Assembly: GCA_000004695.1 (NCBI GenBank)
Contig: CM000154.2
Span: 384,001-448,000 of the forward strand
Reading direction: 5' to 3'
Length of the DNA: 64,000 nucleotides
From: Dictyostelium discoideum
Lineage: Eukaryota
Shown piece by piece: positions 4,563-49,130 of this stretch. The notes under the pieces were generated by a model, which worked only from the letters and a program-made list of their open reading frames with translations, ran no database searches and had not been told where the DNA came from. The position numbers and the translations under genes are program-made. Each line of letters starts with the position of its first letter. Positions within the stretch are counted from its first letter, which is position 1.

Positions 4563-7500
4563 TTAAATTCTACCATCTAATCTATCTTTCATCTTTTTAT
4601 AAGATTTATGTTCTTGTTGTTCAGATTGAAGTTCAGACATGATTTGTTTTCTCTTCTTTTCATTTTCTTTTCTTTCTTCAGTTGCTTTTTTGAATTTCTC
4701 AGCTTGAATGAATTGATTATCTTTAACGATTTCTCTTAAGGCACCTTTAGTTTCTTTTTTAATTAAAGCCTTCATTTTGGCAGTATGATTTCTTTCAGCA
4801 TCAGGATCTTTGTTAAAGAAAGAGAATACTTGATTGAAACGTGGATTGAATTGACGTAATGTTTGAGGTTTACTTGTTAATAGAATCAATGGTTTTCTCT
4901 TATTGATAATTTCTTTATTAATTGAATCAATCAATTGTTTTAAAGAATTTATTTTTTCAATCAATTTCAAATTCATTGTATTTGTATCTAATTTATTTAA
5001 TAAATTTAAAATATTTGTAAATAAACTTGGCAATGATTCATTAAATTGTGATTCTGAATAAAATCTAATATATTTTTCAAGGAACGAAATTAAATAATTT
5101 AAAATATTAATTCTTAATTCATCATTAATTTCTAAATTTGATTTTGATAAATTTGAAAATTCCAATTGAGTTGGTTCAATCTTTTTAATAACATTAATTT
5201 GATTTGAAAGTTTTAAATAATTTAATGGTAATAAAATTGTTGGTATTAAAATATTTGTTGAAATTGATGCCCATTGTGAATTAATATTTGATGGGGTAGT
5301 GGTAGTAGTGGCAGTAGTGGTTTTTGAATTTTTTGAATTTTTTGGTTTAGTAGTGGTGGTGGTAGTAGTTTGAATTGTTGGTGGATTATGATTTATAAAA
5401 GTTGATAATAAACTAATTAAAAGTGATGAAATTTCTGGTGAATATCTTTTTGAAGGTGATAAATAAAAGAATAATAAATTCATAGTGAAAAGTGAAGAGA
5501 TGATATCATTAGCATTTCTAATTGGACAATGGGAGAGGAAGAAATTCAATGCTTCAATTGTTGGTGTTACAACTGGATGTTGGAAATCAGAAGTTGGGAA
5601 AACATTACCAATCAATTTAATAACTAATAACTCTTGTTGATTTGGCCAATAATTTAATTTACTTTGAATTTCCAATTTCTTACAAATACGTTTATAACAT
5701 GAATTAATTAAATCCTTTGATGTTATACCAGATACAATTGGTACATCTTGAGAAATTTCAAAAATATATTTCGATAAAACATCCAATTCAATCCAATCAA
5801 TAGGATTTGATGATTCATCTTGGTCATCCTCTTTAATTGGTTTTGCAATATTAATGAATCTTTGATATAAAATTGGTAAATAATCTTTCATTTTATCCTT
5901 ATTTTGTGGTTTAATTGAAACATGATTACAAACCCCAATACGTGTTAAAATGGTTTCTTTCTCTTCTGATGTTCTATTTAATAACCATTCATCTAATTCT
6001 TCAATTGATTTTGGTGTATCAAAGGTAAATGGAATTGTTTCATTAACTTCTTCTTTTGATTTTTTATTTGTTTTTAATTTTTTAGTTGATTTTTCTTCTT
6101 CCTCCTCCTCGTCGTCTTCTTGACCTGATAAAATTTCATCATCTTTTAAATCTAAATCAGAATCCTCTTCATCACCTTCTTCACCTTCTTCATCTTCATC
6201 ACTTTTATCTTCATCATCAGTTTCTAATTCAGATGATTGTTCATTAGTTTGGTCATCTTCACTGTCAGAATTATCTTTATTATTATTATCATCGTCGGAA
6301 TCAATTTGTGGATTATAGAAAACTGTATCTACACCATTAATATTTAAAACTTCATTTTCATCATCTAATGAATCGGCTGTTAACATTTTTGGTTTATTAT
6401 CTTTTGCTTTTAATCTATCTAAAACTTTTCTTGGTAAATTTTTATCACTATCTTTAACATTATCATCAGCTTCCAATTCAACGTAATCACCACTTGCTCT
6501 CTCTAATCTTTCTTTTTCTTTTTGTTGTAATCTTTCCATCTCTTCTTTCATTTGTTCTTCTTTAGTTTTAGTTCTATCAGTTGCATGTGCCCTACTCTCA
6601 CCTTGTAATTCATATAATAATTCATCGAAATCGTCATGTGCTTCCTTTGGTTTTTTTGTTGAATCATTAGTTGAATTTGATGATGATGATGAAGCGAATT
6701 TTTGTTCATTTGATCTTTGTTCAGCTTGGAATTTTAAGAATGCATCATCTTGTAAATTATTATTATTGCTACTATTGCTATTATTACCATTTGTTAATAT
6801 TAATTCACCTCTAATTAAATTAAATTCTTCATCTAAATCTCTAGTTAATGCTTCTTTTTTTAATTTTTCTTTTGCTCTTTCAGCTTTACCAATCTTTGAT
6901 TTTTCAATAATTTCTTGATAAATCTCTTTCTTTGATTTATGTCTATCTTGTCTTTCACCATTACCATTACTATCATCATCACCACCACCAAATCTTTGTC
7001 TTTCACTTAAAAACTCTTTTCCAACTTCATCCAATTCATCATCTGATGCGACATAATCATCATTACCTTCAGATAATGACATTGAATTACTACCTAATGA
7101 ATTACCTAATGATTGACCCATATGTGTTAATTCTTCTTGATCATTATCATTTAAATTATATAAATTTTTATTTCTCTATTTTAAAATAAAAATAAAAATA
7201 AAAAAGAAATTTATTAGTAATAATATTTTTTTCTTATATATATATATTAAATAAATAAATATTTACCAATTTTTCTCTTTGAAAACGTGCTAACATTTTA
7301 TCTTCTTCAGACATTGAAGCATCATTTTCACCAATACGAGCATCAATGAATTTATTTGATTTATTCATTTGATTCATTTCAACTAAAATTGTTTTTTTAC
7401 GTTTTTCAATTGCATTATATCTTGATTGACCTAAATCACCTGATGCACCTTTAACTTGTCTATTTAAAACTACATGTTTTGTTTTATTAACCTTTCTATC

Positions 7501-9563: not shown

Positions 9564-9958
9564 TTTTAGTTTAAAAAAAAAAAAAATAAAAATAAAAAAT
9601 TAAAAAAAAGTGAAAAAAAAAAAAAAAATATTTATTATTTTAAAAAAAATAGTTTTTTTCTACTTTTGAAATTAATTTTTTTTAATTTTTTATTTTAATT
9701 TTTTTTTTTTTCAATTTTTTAATTTTTTTTTTATTTAAAAAATTCAAACGTAATTGGAAAACTGTTTTTTTTTTTTTTTTTTTTTAGGCTTGTGCTATAA
9801 TTATAAAAAAAATTAAAAAAAAAAAAAATTAAAAAAAAAAAATTAAAAAAAAACAATTTTAGTTTCAATATATATATATATACAAGTTAAAGAATTGTAT
9901 ATATAATTAGATAGAATAAAATTCAATTTAGAATTGTTTAAAACCAACAAGTTTGTAA

Positions 9959-13758: not shown

Positions 13759-15905
<2,147 letters not shown>

Positions 15906-22657: not shown

Positions 22658-24025
22658 ATGAAAAAAGCAAGTAAAATTATAATTGGTATATTAGGTGTAT
22701 CAACAGTGACAGCAGGAGTTATAAATTATAAATTAGGAGAAAAAGTTAAATCATTAGAAGTAGAGATATCAGAGAAAAAAGATCAAAATAAACAAATTGA
22801 AATTAAACATCAAGATCTTGGTAAAGAATTATCAAGAGTAATTGATGATAAAGTAAGCATCGAGAATAGAACCAAAGATATTGAAAGAACCAATCAATAT
22901 TTAATTGAACTATTTAATGGATTCAATGGGATTACCTACGAGCAATTGAGTCTAATACCATCGAATATTCACGGATCGGCATTCCCCCACAATCAACTGC
23001 ACTATAAGTTAATAGGGGAATTGGGACTCCCAAGCTCGCAGAATCTATGGTTCTACGAAACCTATATTTCCTCATTGAATTTCGAGAGAAAGGTGCCCAA
23101 TTGGGTATGTCAGCGTATTGAAATCCAAGATTTTAAAGAGAAAATAGCGGATCGTAAGCATTGCAATTTCAACAATAACACCATCCAAGTGCCTCACCAT
23201 TTCAAACAAGAAAATAAAGATTACTGGGGCAGTGGGTGGAGCAAAGGTCATATGGTACCCGCTGGCGATAATATAAAAAGTCAAGAATCAATGTGTCAAA
23301 CCTTTCTATTGAATTCAAATATTGTACCACAAGATTTAAATAATAATCAAAACTTTTGGTATAGGTTAGAATCATTTTGTAAGAATCAATTAATCAATCG
23401 TTTTAAATCTGTAACGATCATCAGTGGTCCAATCTATCATCATCCAAATTTAATTGAACAATTGGATGAAGATCAATTAAAATCACGTCCAAAATATTCT
23501 AAACAAACTCAAAAGAAATTTGTAAAATATGAAGTAATTGGTGACAGAAATGTAGCAGTACCAAATTATTTATTTAAAATTATTTTAGTTGAACCAAAAG
23601 ATGATAATAATAATAATAAACAACAACAACCATATTTAGTTAGTAGTTTTTTAATACCAAATGAACCAATTTCATCAGATGCAGTTTTAACAGATTATCA
23701 AGTACCATTACATGAGATTGAAGTTAAAACTGGTTTACAATTCTTTAAGAAATTAAATCCAAAAACTGATATTCAATCATTATGTGATTCTGATCCAATC
23801 AATTGTATGATGATGACTGAAAAAGATTTATTACCACGTTTAATTGGTTTTTGTAGATCAACAAAAGATATCAATGATTTAAAAAATGAATATAAACATA
23901 TTAATTGGGGTGATAGTTTAACAAATTTATTAAATTCAAAATCATTAGAAATAAATCAAATTGAAGAATTAAAAAATCAAGAAAGATTATTAAAAAAACA
24001 ACAAGAAGAACAATCAAAAAATTAA
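22658..24025 (+). CDS. DNA/RNA non-specific endonuclease (Endonuclease G / NUC1 family), probably mitochondrial.
   Basis: Active-site block DYWGSGWSKGHMVPAGDN corresponds to the EndoG DRGH motif (SGFDRGHLAAA / RGHMAPA). N-terminal presequence/TM-like segment. Single exon, 455 aa. Confidence 0.8.
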   Translation: MKKASKIIIGILGVSTVTAGVINYKLGEKVKSLEVEISEKKDQNKQIEIKHQDLGKELSRVIDDKVSIENRTKDIERTNQYLIELFNGFNGITYEQLSLIPSNIHGSAFPHNQLHYKLIGELGLPSSQNLWFYETYISSLNFERKVPNWVCQRIEIQDFKEKIADRKHCNFNNNTIQVPHHFKQENKDYWGSGWSKGHMVPAGDNIKSQESMCQTFLLNSNIVPQDLNNNQNFWYRLESFCKNQLINRFKSVTIISGPIYHHPNLIEQLDEDQLKSRPKYSKQTQKKFVKYEVIGDRNVAVPNYLFKIILVEPKDDNNNNKQQQPYLVSSFLIPNEPISSDAVLTDYQVPLHEIEVKTGLQFFKKLNPKTDIQSLCDSDPINCMMMTEKDLLPRLIGFCRSTKDINDLKNEYKHINWGDSLTNLLNSKSLEINQIEELKNQERLLKKQQEEQSKN

Positions 24026-24098
24026 AAAAAAATATCTTGAAACTAACAAGATATTTATTAAATAAATTTTATATATTATTAAATTACTCTACGCTACA

Positions 24099-24132
<34 letters not shown>

Positions 24133-24141
<9 letters not shown>

Positions 24142-24812
24142 TGAACTTTGATTTGACTTTTTTTCTGTTAAACTTATTAATTGTTCTGGTGGTATTTCAT
24201 TTGATTGTGGTTGATTTTCACATTGATTTGAAATGTGTTTAAAAACTTGTTCTATATTTATATTATCTTTTGCAGAGGTATCAAAGTAAGTTAGATTGCC
24301 ACCAATGTTATCTTTACACCATTGAATAGCGGCTTTCTCTGTAACTACTCTATTTGGATCATCGATTTTATTTCCTAAAATAATGAATGGAAATAAGATT
24401 GGATCTCGAATTTCTGTTTTTTCAATGAAATCATCTCTCCAAAGTTTTAAATCGTAAAGTGTCTTCTCATTGGTTACATCAAATACCAATATACAATAAT
24501 CTGCTCCTCTGTAATATGATATCTCTAAACTTCTGAATCTCTCTTGACCACTTGTGTCCCATAATTGAAGTGTAACCATATTTTCACTAACCATAACGAA
24601 ATCAACTCCAATCGTTGGTTTCAATGTAACAAATCTTTTATCGACATATCTTCTTAATATACTAGTTTTACCAACACTAAATTAAATAAATTATAAAAAA
24701 AAAAAAATAGTTAATAGCTTGTTGTTGTTGTTGTTGTTGTTTTTTTAAAATTTTTTACATACCTTTTCTCACCTATAATGACAACTTTAATAATTTTCCT
24801 TCCTTTTGTCAT
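24133..24812 (-). CDS. Rab-family small GTPase (Rab7-like), two exons: complement(join(24133..24676,24763..24812)), 197 aa.
   Basis: Exon 1 MTKGRKIIKVVIIGEK + ag. GTATGT donor (RC at 24757-24762). 86-bp intron. Acceptor tttaatttAG (exon 2 starts at 24676) completes the P-loop IIGEKSVGKTS. Then TIGVDFV, WDTSGQERF, YYRGADYCILVFDV, ILGNKID, FDTSAKDNINIEQVF and a C-terminal SSCC prenylation motif. Confidence 0.8.
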
Positions 24813-24837
24813 GTTATGTGTTTTAAAAAATTGTAAT

Positions 24838-24876
<39 letters not shown>

Positions 24877-25540
24877 CTTTTTTTTTTCTTTTTTTTTTTG
24901 TTTATGTAAAAAATATAAGTACATATAAAACAAAAAAATCTATAGAAAATTTTAAAAAAAAAAAATAAAAAAATGAAAAAAAAATAAATGAAAATAAAAA
25001 TTATTAAAAAATAAAAATTCACGATGTATTAAACATTTTATAAAATTGAGTTGTGCTGGTTTGGTAAAAATCTCAAATTTTTAATTAGATAAATATAGTA
25101 AAATTAAAATTCAATAAATTAAATTTTAGTTTTATTTTTATTTTTTTCTATAGTTTTATTTTATTTTTATTTTTATTTATTTGGTTTCATTTTCATGTTT
25201 ATTTTTTATTTTTAATTTCCTTTATAATTTTTTATTTTTTTGAAAAAAGAAGAAAATAAAGAACATTTTTTTTTTTTTTTTTTTTTTTTTTTTGTTTTTT
25301 TTTTTTAAATATTGAACAATTAGTGTTTATTAAGGAATTAAAACTATATAATTAAAATTAAAATTCATAAAAAACTATAATTATATAATTTTGAAAATTA
25401 TTAAAAAGCAAAAAATTTAAAATAAAATCTTTAATAAGATCCTAGCAATTTTTTAAAGACCCAAAGGTCCTTAACTATTAAATTATAAAAAATTAAACTG
25501 CCAAGTTATTGTATTATTTTGGGTTTCATCTCTATTTAGA

Positions 25541-25560
25541 GAGTTGAACTAGCGATCTTA
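25541..25560 (-). promoter_or_regulatory. External B-box (ex-B) downstream of tRNA-Gly, the Dictyostelium-specific extra pol III B-box
   Basis: About 33 nt 3' of the tRNA, the minus strand reads GATCGCTAGTTCAACTCTC, a degenerate copy of the B-box GGTTCGAATCC. Dictyostelium tRNA genes commonly carry such ex-B boxes 20-40 bp downstream (established knowledge). Confidence 0.4.
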
Positions 25561-25583
25561 TTTAAAAGATAGGGAAAATTTTA

Positions 25584-25654
25584 TGCGTATGCTGGGAATC
25601 GAACCCAGTTCGCATCCGTGGCAGGGATGCATCATACCACTAGACCACATACGC
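25584..25654 (-). tRNA. tRNA-Gly (anticodon GCC)
   Basis: Reverse complement GCGTATGTGGTCTAGTGGTATGATGCATCCCTGCCACGGATGCGAACTGGGTTCGATTCCCAGCATACGCA folds as a cloverleaf. 7-bp acceptor stem GCGTATG/CATACGC. Anticodon stem CATCC/GGATG with loop CTGCCAC (GCC). T-arm GGGTTCGATTCCC. Confidence 0.85.
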
Positions 25655-25694
25655 TTTTTGGTGAATATTTTTCTAAATAATAGCTTTTTATATG

Positions 25695-25935
25695 GTAAAA
25701 TATCTCTTAAAGCTTCTCCAAAGATCCACAACTCCCCCTGCATCTGGTGTAACGAATAGGAAACCTCAGAACATATCTTCTTTAAATGCAAACCACACAC
25801 TAAAGAAACTCAAGAGTGCATCAACTTCATTCAAGAAAAATCTGGAGGATCCAGAATCAATTGGGGAATAGAAATCTTCAACAGACCAGACATTCCATTA
25901 ACAGCCAACGTTATTCCATTCAAAAAAAAAATTTA
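25695..25935 (+). mobile_element. Candidate tRNA-gene-targeted non-LTR retroelement fragment (TRE5-like), head-to-head with tRNA-Gly, ending in oligo(A)
   Basis: A roughly 240-bp block of much higher GC content than its surroundings begins about 45 bp upstream of the tRNA-Gly 5' end, the characteristic TRE5 insertion distance (established knowledge). It contains a stop-terminated ORF tail ...HIFFKCKPHTKETQECINFIQEKSGGSRINWGIEIFNRPDIPLTANVIPFKKKI* with Cys/His spacing reminiscent of the C-terminal domain of non-LTR ORF2. It ends ...ccattcAAAAAAAAAA (25923-25932). Confidence 0.3.
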
Positions 25936-26281
25936 AATGGTAAACAAAAAAAATTAAACTATAATTAAAAACAAAACAAATAATAAAATCCAAATACATC
26001 CCAAAATTAAAAAAAAAAAATAAAAAATAAAAAAAAATTAAAAAAAGAAACAAAATTAACGATTGAAAATTTTACTTAATTTAAATATTGTAATAAAAAG
26101 CCAGATATTTTATTAAAATAAGCATAAAATTGGTTAAAATTAAAAAATAATTTAAAATTAAATTATTTTTAATTATATAATTACAACCCACCAAAACCAA
26201 AACTAAATTTTAATATCATATTATATTTATTTTTTCCAGTTTTTATAAAAACTTGATGAATTCCCCCAAACCAGGATGACT

Positions 26282-26319
<38 letters not shown>

Positions 26320-26586
26320 TAAACATTAATACAGCCATAGCCCAGTGATTTGTGCAAGCTTTGTCAGTCAACTGGATATTAATAATAAAAAAAAAAAAAA
26401 TAAAAAAAAAAAATAAAAAAAAATAAAAAAAAAAAAATAAAAAAAATAAGAGTGGCGGAGGGAATCTTCACAAAAATCTAGTGTCGGAATTGATTTCTTC
26501 TCAAATAAATGAAAAAAAAAAAAATAAGAAAAGTAAGATAACTATTCAAAAAAAAAAAAATAATAAAAAAAAAATTAAAATATTGG

Positions 26587-26624
<38 letters not shown>

Positions 26625-26779
26625 AAAAAAAAAGATATTATTAAAACGACTGAACGCAATACATAAATACAGCAAATTACAACTTTTAATTATTTAAATA
26701 ATTATAAAAAAATAAAATAAAAAAAAAAAAAAATAAAAAAAATAAAAAAAATAAAAAAAATAAAAAAAATAAAAAAAAT

Positions 26780-26811
<32 letters not shown>

Positions 26812-27045
26812 GAAAGAAATCAAACTGCTCACATTAAAAATTTTATAAAATTTTATAATTTTTGTGCAGTTTCGAGGTAAATTTCATATGATCAAAAAAA
26901 TTAAAAAAAACAAAAAAAACAAAAAATAAATAAATAAAAAAAAAAAAATTAAATTTTTTTAAATTTACCGAGGTACAATCAATTTTAAACCAGAAATTTC
27001 ACAAAAAATAAAATTAAAAAAAAAAAAAAAAAAAAAAAAACCCAG

Positions 27046-27082
<37 letters not shown>

Positions 27083-28141
27083 CCCGGTTTACCAAAGTTT
27101 TGGTTTGGACCGCGGTAAACTTTCCCTATTGGGGGAAAACCCCACACCACCCATTCACACCACATATTAAAAAATTTAAAAATAAAAAAATAAAAAAATA
27201 AAAAAAAATAAAAAAAAATTATCTTCTCTTACAACTGTTACTTGTTTTTTTAATTTTTATAATAATAACAAAAAAAATTTTTTAAAAAAAAAAAAAAAAT
27301 TTAATTTAAAAAAATTAAAATTTCAATACCACCACCTTGCACCATTCACACAAACAGAGTAAATTTCAAAATTTATCACCATATTATTAAATTTTATTAA
27401 ACAGAAATAATAAATTTTTATATAAAAAAAATATATAAAAAATAAATATAATTATAATAAAAAATAAATAAAATTATTATTTTATTTATTACAAATACAA
27501 TAATTAGATTTTAGTAGTTTATCATTTAAATATGTATAATTTTTTTTTTTTTGTATAAATTGTTTTTATAATAAAGCATATTTTTTTATTTTCAAAAAAA
27601 ATAATATATGTATAAAAAAAAAAAAAAAAAAAAAAACTTTTATATTTTTCATTATTATAATTAATTTTTTTTTTTTTTTTTTTTTTAAATTAAATACACT
27701 TGTATACATAATAACTAGAATTTTCCTACCAATATTTTTTATTTCTTTTTCGGTATCACATTGTATTTATCTCTGCAATTTTTTTTTTTTTTTTTTTTTT
27801 ACTAATCCATTACCAATAATTAATTTTTTTTTTTTTTTAATTATCTTTTTTTTTGTTTTTATTTTTTTTATTTTTATTTATTTTTTTTATTTTTTTTTAT
27901 TTTTTTATTTTTTTATTTTCCAAACGACACTTTTCCTTCGTTTTATTAACTTTTTTTATTTTTTATTTTTTTTTCATTTTCATTTTTTTAAAAAAAAAAA
28001 ACTTAATTTAATTTCTAGAATAAAAAACAAAACCTTAAAATATACAACTGTTGAAAATTATAATTTACAAAAACAAATAAATTAAACAAATTAAATAAAA
28101 AAACAAACAAACAAATCAAATCAAATCAAATCAAATTAATA

Positions 28142-48033: not shown

Positions 48034-48051
48034 GACAGGAGTCGAACCTGT
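48034..48051 (-). promoter_or_regulatory. External B-box (ex-B) 27 nt downstream of tRNA-Leu
   Basis: Minus strand reads ACAGGTTCGACTCCTGTC, a near-consensus B-box (GGTTCGANTCC) with flanking inverted bases, immediately 3' of the tRNA. This is the typical Dictyostelium ex-B arrangement. Confidence 0.5.
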
Positions 48052-48077
48052 AGTCTTTGGTGGCTCAAATAAATTAT

Positions 48078-48159
48078 TGTAAGCTAAGGGATTCGAACCC
48101 TTGTATCAATGATATTGCAGCCTTAATGCAACCCCTTAGACCAGCTCGGGCAAGCTTAC
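48078..48159 (-). tRNA. tRNA-Leu (anticodon AAG), class II with long variable arm
   Basis: Reverse complement GTAAGCTTGCCCGAGCTGGTCTAAGGGGTTGCATTAAGGCTGCAATATCATTGATACAAGGGTTCGAATCCCTTAGCTTACA. Acceptor GTAAGCT/AGCTTAC. Anticodon stem TTGCA/TGCAA with loop TTAAGGC (AAG). 12-nt variable arm. T-arm AAGGGTTCGAATCCCTT. Confidence 0.85.
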
Positions 48160-48194
48160 TTTTTGAAAATTTTGTAATCTCTAACGATATTAAT

Positions 48195-48358
48195 TTATCA
48201 ATTACGGAAAAAAAACAAACAACAACAACAATCTCTTTTTTTGATTATTTCATTTTTCATATAAAAAAGACTTAAAAAACAAATAAATAAATAAATAAAC
48301 TATTTTAAAAAGCCATCTTTTTACTTTATTGTAATTTATTATTTGAAATAGAAAAAAT

Positions 48359-48409
<51 letters not shown>

Positions 48410-48701
48410 GGAACCCAAGTTAATCAGAAAATTTCCAGATTTTTAACTTTTTAAAGAAAAATAAAAAAAATAGAAAGAAAATAAAATGAAAATCACAAAC
48501 AACACCACAAATATTAAGCAACACAAATGCCTACAAAAAATAAGCGAAATTGTGGATAAAACTCAATTAAAAAAAAAACAATTCAAATACGTCATAAACA
48601 TCAATCACGAACCAGACGATAAAATAAAAAAAGATTTAGAAAAAAGTTTGGACAAAAAAGATGTTTTAATCAAAAGTAATAATACAATTCAAAATTCGAA
48701 A

Positions 48702-48743
<42 letters not shown>

Positions 48744-49130
48744 TAAACCAACCCCTCTTTTAGAGACCCTGTAAAAAAAAATAAAATAAAATAAAATGAG
48801 ATCTAGCATCTCAAGGAGAAGCAAATAATAATTGCGTTATCCAATTCAAAAAAAAAATAATTTATCAATTACTATGACCCTGTAAAAAAAAAATTATTAT
48901 TATTTATCCCTGTAAAAAAAAAAAAAATAAAATGAGATCTAGCATCTCAAGGAGAAGCAAATAATAATTGCGTTATCCAATTCAAAAAAAAAAAATTTAT
49001 CAATTACTAAAAAAACAACAACAACAATCTCTTTTTTTGATTATTTCATTTTTCATAAAAAAGACTTAAAAAACAAATAAATAAACTATTTTAAAAAGCC
49101 ATCTTTTTACTTATTGTAATCTATTATTTG
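48195..49130. repeat. Composite direct-repeat structure beginning about 35 bp upstream of tRNA-Leu. Unit A (48195-48345), then about 420 bp of unique sequence including a K-rich small ORF (48486-48746), then about 135-bp unit B twice in tandem (48762-48872 and 48910-49008), then A' (48997-49130), about 90% identical to A. Possible tRNA-targeted element remnant or local duplication.
   Basis: A: ttatcaattacggaaaaaaaacaaacaacaacaacaatctctttttttgattatttcatttttcatataaaaaagacttaaaaaacaaataaataaa...ctattttaaaaagccatctttttactttattgtaatttattatttg. A' is the same with small indels. B/B': ccctgtaaaaaaa...ataaaatgagatctagcatctcaaggagaagcaaataataattgcgttatccaattcaaaaaaaa..tttatcaattac. The 12-mer tttatcaattac marks each junction (48190, 48861, 48996). 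Confidence 0.5.

Follow-up and report, generated by a model that had tools for sequence, protein, structure and literature searches.

A gene for tRNA-Gly(GCC) lies on the minus strand of a 64,000-nucleotide (nt) stretch of the Dictyostelium discoideum genome (contig CM000154.2, positions 384,001 to 448,000, assembly GCA_000004695.1). This whole stretch is referred to as the window, and positions are counted from its first letter. Upstream of the gene there is a short island with a much higher content of guanine and cytosine (GC) than its surroundings, followed by a run of ten A. The island is very probably a dead 232-bp remnant of a D. discoideum non-LTR (long terminal repeat) retrotransposon of the TRE5 class, most likely of TRE5-C.

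Results

The tRNA-Gly(GCC) gene is recognised both by ARAGORN and by Rfam, and an Rfam scan of positions 24000-28000 gave nothing beyond the tRNA (Table 1). The minus strand around the T4 run that directly follows the gene reads ...GCA TAAAATTTT, and this run is likely to be the RNA polymerase III (Pol III) terminator of tRNA-Gly. Of the tRNA genes of D. discoideum, 66% have an external B box (exB) with the core GTTCRAnYC approximately 41 bp downstream (PMC3159450), and the exB of this gene agrees with that core. The pattern GTTCRANNC occurs ten times on the two strands of the window. Four of these occurrences are accounted for by the two tRNA genes present, each with one internal and one external box. 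The exB is considered real because the pattern is this rare and because both its core and its position fit the literature. A B-box-like sequence was also seen, by eye and without a motif scan, at the equivalent place in the orthologous loci of a divergent D. discoideum strain, Dictyostelium citrinum and Dictyostelium firmibasis.

The island (25700-25921) has 38.7% GC compared with 13.9% and 12.5% in its flanks and 21% in the whole window, and it is separated from the 5' end of the tRNA gene by 45 nt (25655-25699). A first-pass annotation made from the sequence had described a tRNA-Gly(GCC) gene with an exB, an upstream island of ordinary base composition at a distance typical of TRE5 elements, and an A10 terminus; each of these features is present at the locus. 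The window is 100% identical between 25400 and 26100 to the assembly GCA_054883475.1 at NCBI (with D. discoideum proteins), in which the open reading frame (ORF) of the neighbouring endonuclease (22658-24025) is also found exactly. No gene is called at the fragment in the annotation of that assembly.

Table 1. Features of the tRNA-Gly(GCC) locus and of the TRE5 fragment upstream of it.
Feature	Position	Strand	Basis or comment
External B box (exB) GTTCAACTC	25541-25549	minus	GTTCRANNC match; begins 35 nt past the tRNA 3' end
T4 run directly 3' of tRNA-Gly	25575-25578	minus	Read from sequence
tRNA-Gly(GCC) gene, integration landmark	25584-25654	minus	ARAGORN; Rfam RF00005, 63.6 bits, E=1e-12; syntenic in five related genomes
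Left copy of target-site duplication, TTTATATGGTAAA	25687-25699	.	12/13 to right copy; adjoins first TRE5-homologous base
5'-truncated ORF2 piece, zinc-knuckle region, TRE5-C-like	25700-25910	+	DNA and protein homology
CCHC zinc-knuckle codons, CX2CX7HX4C	25739-25789 (C 25739-41, C 25748-50, H 25772-74, C 25787-89)	+	Translation and alignment
In-frame TAG, inactivates the frame	25757-25759	+	T versus C mismatch at 25757; closest copy has CAG (Gln)
Extreme 3' end of C-module, CGTTATTCCATTC	25909-25921	+	Match to C-module ends
A10 tail of retrotransposed copy	25922-25931	+	Read from sequence; related copies end in A8 and A9
Right copy of target-site duplication, TTTAAATGGTAAA	25932-25944	.	12/13 to left copy; homology to the orthologous locus of the divergent D. 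discoideum strain (L003) resumes at ~25948

An open frame of 54 codons (25760-25921) carries the string HIFFKCKPH...C. The longer frame from 25691 reads ...SPCIWCNE*ETSEHIFFKCKPH...TANVIPF-KKK, where the asterisk is the stop codon, and it runs directly into the A-run. The pattern CX2CX7HX4C is the zinc knuckle of non-LTR reverse-transcriptase proteins. It starts upstream of the in-frame TAG and continues across it (C-IW-C-NE*ETSE-H-IFFK-C), and the four CCHC residues are invariant in an alignment with eight TRE5 ORF2 relatives. An antisense ORF of 80 amino acids (aa) that overlaps the fragment is spurious.

When the 54-aa piece after the stop codon was compared by HMMER with 1.84 billion representative proteins, 12 proteins matched. 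The best match is DDB_G0282541 (P0001) of D. discoideum AX4, with 90% identity and E=3e-24, which is named a reverse transcriptase zinc-binding domain-containing protein in UniRef and a 'hypothetical protein' in RefSeq. The next matches are Dictyostelium proteins with 50-56% identity, including ORF2-like proteins of 980-993 aa with the Pfam domain RVT_1. Identity to ORF2 proteins of this size with RVT_1 is 48-56%, and their genomic copies sit upstream of tRNA genes. The 81-aa conceptual peptide gave no candidates in a word-indexed search of proteins. In the protein alignment the fragment covers roughly residues 814-890 of a relative whose ORF2 has 993 aa, and the 54 codons are not the C-terminus of ORF2 because the intact relatives run about 100 residues further.

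The gene for DDB_G0282541 lies directly upstream of a tRNA-Ser(GCT) gene in a locus here called L002. Positions 25701-25910 of the window and 10086-10295 of L002 are identical in 198 of 210 nt (94%, blastn), and nine of the 12 differences are transitions, one of which turns CAG into TAG. This closest copy (L002 9883-10740) has a length of 858 bp, starts 45 nt from the 5' end of tRNA-Ser(GCT) and has the same orientation as the fragment. TRE5-A has the layout AB-ORF1/ORF2-BC, while TRE5-C has a C-module but lacks the B-module and TRE5-B lacks both (PMC3159450). The closest copy consists of an ORF2 tail, A33 and a C-module of approximately 100 nt ending in ...AAAAATTGCGTTATTCTATTC followed by A8, and it has no B-module. 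It is preceded by ATGTTCTCGCAGAA, and after A8 comes ATGTTGTCGCAGAA, which constitutes a 14-nt target-site duplication of its own. Searches by blastn and tblastn for further copies of the fragment within the window found none, except for the 3'-terminal motif near the second tRNA gene.

The fragment is likewise enclosed by a target-site duplication of 13 nt with one mismatch, the boundaries of which coincide with the ends of homology both to the TRE5 element and to the orthologous locus. As a control, the specific 13-mer was matched at 12 or more of its 13 positions in only one of 5819 AT-rich segments of 56 nt from the same 64 kb, and a generic control with random pairs gave 2.9%.

The 3' end of the fragment differs from the part of ORF2 that would be expected to follow. 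The last 14 nt before the A-tail, ACGTTATTCCATTC (25908-25921), are identical at 12 of 14 positions to the 3' termini of the C-module in two TRE5-C-like copies in L002, compared with 5 of 14 for the continuation of ORF2 (ungapped). With no more than two mismatches allowed, this 14-mer is found at only three sites in the whole window, and at all three it is immediately followed by an A-run that lies upstream of a tRNA gene. The terminal motif CGTTATTCYATTC is the TRE5-C-type end before the A-tail, and ends of the same type precede the A-tails of other TRE5 copies. The junction between ORF2 and the C-module reads ACAGCCAACGTTATTCCATTCAAAA, and the CG at 25909-25910 is common to both sides, that is, a junction microhomology. 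Relative to the closest copy 434 nt are missing (L002 10296-10729). These comprise ~100 codons at the end of ORF2, the A-run inside the element and the whole C-module apart from its last 11-13 nt. The alignment places the deletion inside the element, where ORF2 passes straight into the terminal 11-13 nt of the C-module and then into the A-tail, and the tRNA-proximal end of the fragment is a truncation point inside ORF2.

These results bear on the remaining claims of the first-pass annotation. TRE5-type targeting, which it had proposed from the distance to the tRNA, holds with regard to the 94% DNA identity to a TRE5 element, the target-site duplication, the orientation and the distance of 45 nt. 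The duplication, which it had recommended looking for, flanks the whole insert. Similarity to a TRE element is present and the frame matches no cellular gene, which were the two points on which the proposal could have failed. The 54-codon ORF with its string of Cys and His is also there, but not as the C-terminus of its protein, since ORF2 of the intact relatives is about 100 residues longer. Finally, the island had been described as a heavily deleted retroelement consisting of a 5' boundary and a 3' tail. It is a degraded element with a 3' A-tail, but the 5' boundary of the element is absent and the truncation lies inside ORF2.

Syntenic loci were located by means of orthologues of the neighbouring endonuclease in the divergent D. 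discoideum strain (L003, GCA_054859355.1), Dictyostelium cf. discoideum (L004), D. citrinum (L005) and D. firmibasis (L006). All four have tRNA-Gly(GCC) at the same syntenic position, and the TRE5-C fragment is absent from all four. D. citrinum has a different TRE5 insertion (L005 13115-13480) with a C-module-like end, located 47 nt upstream of tRNA-Gly and flanked by the duplication GTTTAGAAGTGG. D. cf. discoideum has a degenerate ORF2 tail with an A-run (L004 16533-16950), 48 nt upstream of tRNA-Gly. These two are independent TRE5 integrations at the orthologous tRNA-Gly gene.

Some further observations were made in the related genomes. The insert in D. citrinum contains a tRNA-like stretch with the B box GTCGTGAGTTCGATTC, where ARAGORN calls no tRNA. 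In another locus of D. cf. discoideum (L007 751-6167), a TRE5 element that seems close to full length is located 48 nt upstream of tRNA-Val(AAC), with the duplication CATTTTTTTTAAAA. It begins with a duplicated 5' end that resembles the A-module, after which come ORF1 of 455 aa, ORF2 of 993 aa or more with RVT_1, an A-run and a C-module. In the window, the AT-rich intergenic DNA that separates the fragment from a cysteine-dioxygenase-like gene (26286-28100) is 80% identical to D. cf. discoideum and 68% identical to D. firmibasis. GC-richer islands at ~26240-26290, 26320-26385 and 26441-26500 are each followed by a long A-run, and they have no match in Rfam. The conserved DNA at 26286-28100 may represent a promoter, an untranslated region or an unannotated small RNA.

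TRE5 sequences are also found at the second tRNA gene of the window, tRNA-Leu(AAG) (48078-48159, minus strand), which has the external B box GTTCGACTC at 48039-48047. A TRE5-A derivative without ORFs starts 48 nt upstream of this gene (48039-49130 region). Its A-module (48207-48345) is 100% identical to L002 7115-7251 and is followed by an A-run, and the subsequent B-module, A-run and C-module (48368-48860) are 97% identical to L002 6589-7076. Beyond the derivative, positions 48913-48991 form another, partial C-module and positions 48994-49130 another A-module. The sequence AATTTATCAATTAC is repeated at 48193-48206, ~48861-48872 and ~48996-49008. This repetition suggests that one target received several insertions, in tandem or nested.

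In L002 (5031-10740), two tRNA-Ser(GCT) genes (5031-5113 and 9755-9837) each have TRE5 remnants ~45-48 nt upstream, and a third tRNA-Ser(GCT) gene is located at 14166-14248. Between the first two genes there is a chimera (L002 7413-8303), in which the first ~180 nt of a TRE5-A B-module, with the start of ORF1, are followed by ~110 nt of unassigned sequence and then by an ORF2 tail of TRE5-C-like type with its A-run and C-module. Every TRE5 copy that was inspected has internal runs of A30-A46, which stand between ORF2 or the B-module and the module that follows (L002 6594-6627, 6925-6956, 8181-8210 and 10609-10642; window 48360-48405 and 48704-48742). It looks as if the 3' modules of TRE5 have been appended behind an older poly(A) tail.

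Discussion

The fragment has the characteristics of the TRE5 class. It lies 45 nt from the tRNA gene with its 5' side facing the tRNA and A10 at the distal end, it is homologous to ORF2, and it has a target-site duplication together with an A-tail. The same orientation, with the 5' side toward the tRNA and oligo(A) away from it, is found in the relatives in L002 and L007. Integration upstream of tRNA genes has been reported at 34-95 bp for the class, 38-95 bp for TRE5-C and 37-90 bp for TRE5-A (PMC5006619, Table 1).

Two other types of tRNA-associated elements were considered and rejected. TRE3 is contradicted by the upstream location of the fragment and by its 5' side being next to the tRNA gene, and DGLT-A by the distance of 45 nt, the A-tail and the homology to a non-LTR ORF2. 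TRE3 elements insert on the downstream side of tRNA genes, at a distance of ~100 bp, and have their 3' end toward the tRNA. DGLT-A is a Ty3/gypsy-like LTR element without a poly(A) tail, found 13-33 bp upstream of tRNA genes. In Dictyostelium purpureum the DGLT-A distance is 13-16 bp, matching the D. discoideum prototype (PMC5006619).

Within the TRE5 class, TRE5-C is known as an incomplete consensus of 879 bp with 18 copies, none of which is full-length (PMC5006619, Table 1), and the 858 bp of the closest copy is near that size. The published C-modules of TRE5-C and TRE5-A are 78% identical over the last 87 nt, and their folded terminal stretches are 51 and 54 nt long, respectively (PMC3159450). 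For the fragment's family, as represented by the L002 copy and not by the fragment itself, the last 87 nt of the C-module are 77% identical to TRE5-A (70 identical columns among 91 in the alignment). The stretch that corresponds to the folded one has 51 nt in that copy versus 54 nt in TRE5-A, with a similar two-stem fold predicted for both. The fragment is assigned to TRE5-C because the presence of a C-module without a B-module, the identity and length of the C-module, and the size of the copy all agree with published TRE5-C.

The TRE5-A used in this comparison is a neighbouring, 5'-truncated element in L002. It consists of ORF2, A34, a 290-bp module, A30, a module ending in ...GCGTTATCCAATTC and A33, and is flanked by AGCTGTCATCGATGA. 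Four bases of the C-module, T15, C26, A35 and C38 counted from the 3' end, are present in the TRE5-A-type copy of the window (48797-48847) and are the TRE5-A bases that were mutated experimentally (PMC3159450). The L002 element is identified as TRE5-A because of its layout of ORF2, B-module and C-module together with these bases. TRE5-A was rejected as the source of the fragment, which has only ~70% DNA identity and 48-50% protein identity to this copy and does not show the layout with a B-module.

Some observations weigh against the assignment as a whole. The label TRE5-C rests on published structural descriptions and not on an alignment to the consensus in GenBank. A second lineage, 74-78% identical (L002 7698-8303; P0144), also has ORF2, an A-run and a C-module, so that 'TRE5-C' may cover two sub-lineages. 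The L007 element of D. cf. discoideum likewise has a C-module without a 3' B-module. That layout is thus not unique to one family but widespread in the species complex, and the B-module duplication of TRE5-A looks derived because the L007 element lacks it. The Pfam match of the zinc knuckle to zf-RVT is weak (E=0.0023, 19 bits) and falls under the curated cut-off of 27.5 bits. A clean empty site was found in none of the four other genomes. In the divergent D. discoideum strain, the exact insertion point of the window is occupied by an unrelated AT-rich segment of ~350 nt (L003 12840-13191), which is flanked by ATGGTTAA and ATGGTAAA, has no A-tail and gave no match among the compared sequences. 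The segment may be another element inserted at these very target nucleotides, or else an ancestral state that has been rearranged.

The existence of at least two lineages with ORF2, an A-run and a C-module, and of a third in D. cf. discoideum, gives some room for the explanation that the fragment derives from TRE5-B or from an unnamed TRE5 sub-lineage. Its family was judged from descriptions instead of reference sequences, and the ORF2 proteins of TRE5-B from AX4 were not identified among the HMMER matches. Nevertheless, this explanation is unlikely. TRE5-B is described as having a 3' end without a C-module (PMC3159450), and by that description the fragment does not belong to it, given that it ends in the C-module motif and that its 94% identical relative has a complete C-module. 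TRE5-B is 5971 bp long with one full-length copy (PMC5006619), and the 858 bp of the relative together with the low annotated copy number suit TRE5-C, not TRE5-B.

It might also be asked whether the TRE5-C remnant is a simple retrocopy without any internal deletion, either because the ORF truly ends at the A-tail or because of premature polyadenylation inside ORF2. The frame does go straight into the A-run, and a single gap lets the last 12 nt align to the continuation of ORF2 at ~8 of 13 positions. However, the intact relatives have ~100 further codons before an A-run and a C-module of ~100 nt, and the same terminal motif stands before the A-tails of other TRE5 copies. The match of 12 in 14 to the C-module terminus is moreover what the overall 94% identity of the fragment would give, in contrast to the 5 in 14 for ORF2. 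This makes a simple retrocopy very improbable.

The idea that a cellular zinc-finger gene is the source, with the island as one of its exons or as a pseudogene, or that the island is a chance GC patch unrelated to retrotransposition, might draw on the name 'hypothetical protein' of the closest protein in RefSeq and on the sub-threshold Pfam match, but it has next to no probability because all significant relatives are C-terminal parts of ORF2 proteins with a reverse-transcriptase domain, the closest copy, itself 45 nt from a tRNA gene on the upstream side, is flanked by a duplication and ends in an A-tail, the fragment has a duplication and an A-tail of its own, no gene is called there in the annotated assembly, and the fragment is missing from the syntenic site in the four related genomes.

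The TRE5-C remnant can be explained by the integration mechanism of TRE5-A (PMC3159450; PMC5006619). The machinery of the element would have recognised the Pol III complex (TFIIIC/TFIIIB) on the tRNA-Gly(GCC) gene, and the DNA would have been nicked ~45-48 bp upstream. The RNA of the element would then have been copied into the site by target-primed reverse transcription from its poly(A)/C-module 3' end. The outcome would be a copy with its A-tail at the end far from the tRNA and its 5' side toward it, enclosed by a 13-bp duplication of the target TTTAWATGGTAAA. The C-module hairpin is essential for the mobility of TRE5-A (PMC3159450). The fragment lacks this hairpin, and the template RNA therefore probably still had it.

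The internal deletion may have arisen by a template jump of the reverse transcriptase during integration or by a later microhomology-mediated deletion in the genome. One tentative interpretation, which we hold to be possible but not probable, is that the architecture is the fossil of an intramolecular template jump of the TRE5-C reverse transcriptase right after priming on the 3' terminus. If this were true, only about 12 terminal nt need to be copied once initiation has occurred.

After the insertion the fragment gained a stop codon and ~6% substitutions relative to the closest copy. It is dead because it is truncated at the 5' end, has lost ~434 nt internally and has a TAG stop in place of CAG. 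With no coding capacity and without the C-module hairpin needed for mobility, it is regarded as an inert insertion scar. This is a feature of an already known kind in a well-studied genome, with no sign of function, and its significance beyond correct annotation is small. It does provide a worked example of position-specific integration, in which no fewer than three lineages of the D. discoideum complex have acquired independent insertions 45-48 nt upstream of the orthologous tRNA-Gly. If the segment in the divergent D. discoideum strain is an insertion at identical target nucleotides, it would point to nucleotide-precise choice of site upstream of tRNA-Gly. The fragment also offers one well-defined internal-deletion junction that can be used in a survey of TRE5 rearrangements.

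Comparison with known elements

The fragment resembles TRE5-C in lying 45 nt from a tRNA gene, upstream of it and with the 5' side toward it, in its C-module-type terminus, A-tail and target-site duplication, and in its 94% identity to a copy of TRE5-C layout. It differs in that only 232 bp remain, with ~434 nt gone internally and a premature stop.

TRE5-A (DRE) belongs to the same class and has the same target (~50 bp upstream, dependent on the B box) and the same orientation. Its ORF2 also has a C-terminal zinc knuckle, and its C-module ends in the related motif GCGTTATCCAATTC before oligo(A). Derivatives of TRE5-A that are 5'-truncated and internally deleted are well known, for example TRE5-A.2. 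In contrast, the fragment has only ~70% DNA identity and 48-50% protein identity to TRE5-A, the terminal motifs differ, and TRE5-A has a B-module.

Copies of long interspersed nuclear elements (LINEs) that are 5'-truncated and internally deleted, for example mammalian L1 insertions produced by target-primed reverse transcription, have in common with the fragment the A-tail, the target-site duplication, the 5' truncation and internal deletion with microhomology at the junction. LINEs integrate at loose AT-rich consensus sites, whereas the fragment was integrated at a fixed distance from a Pol III gene.

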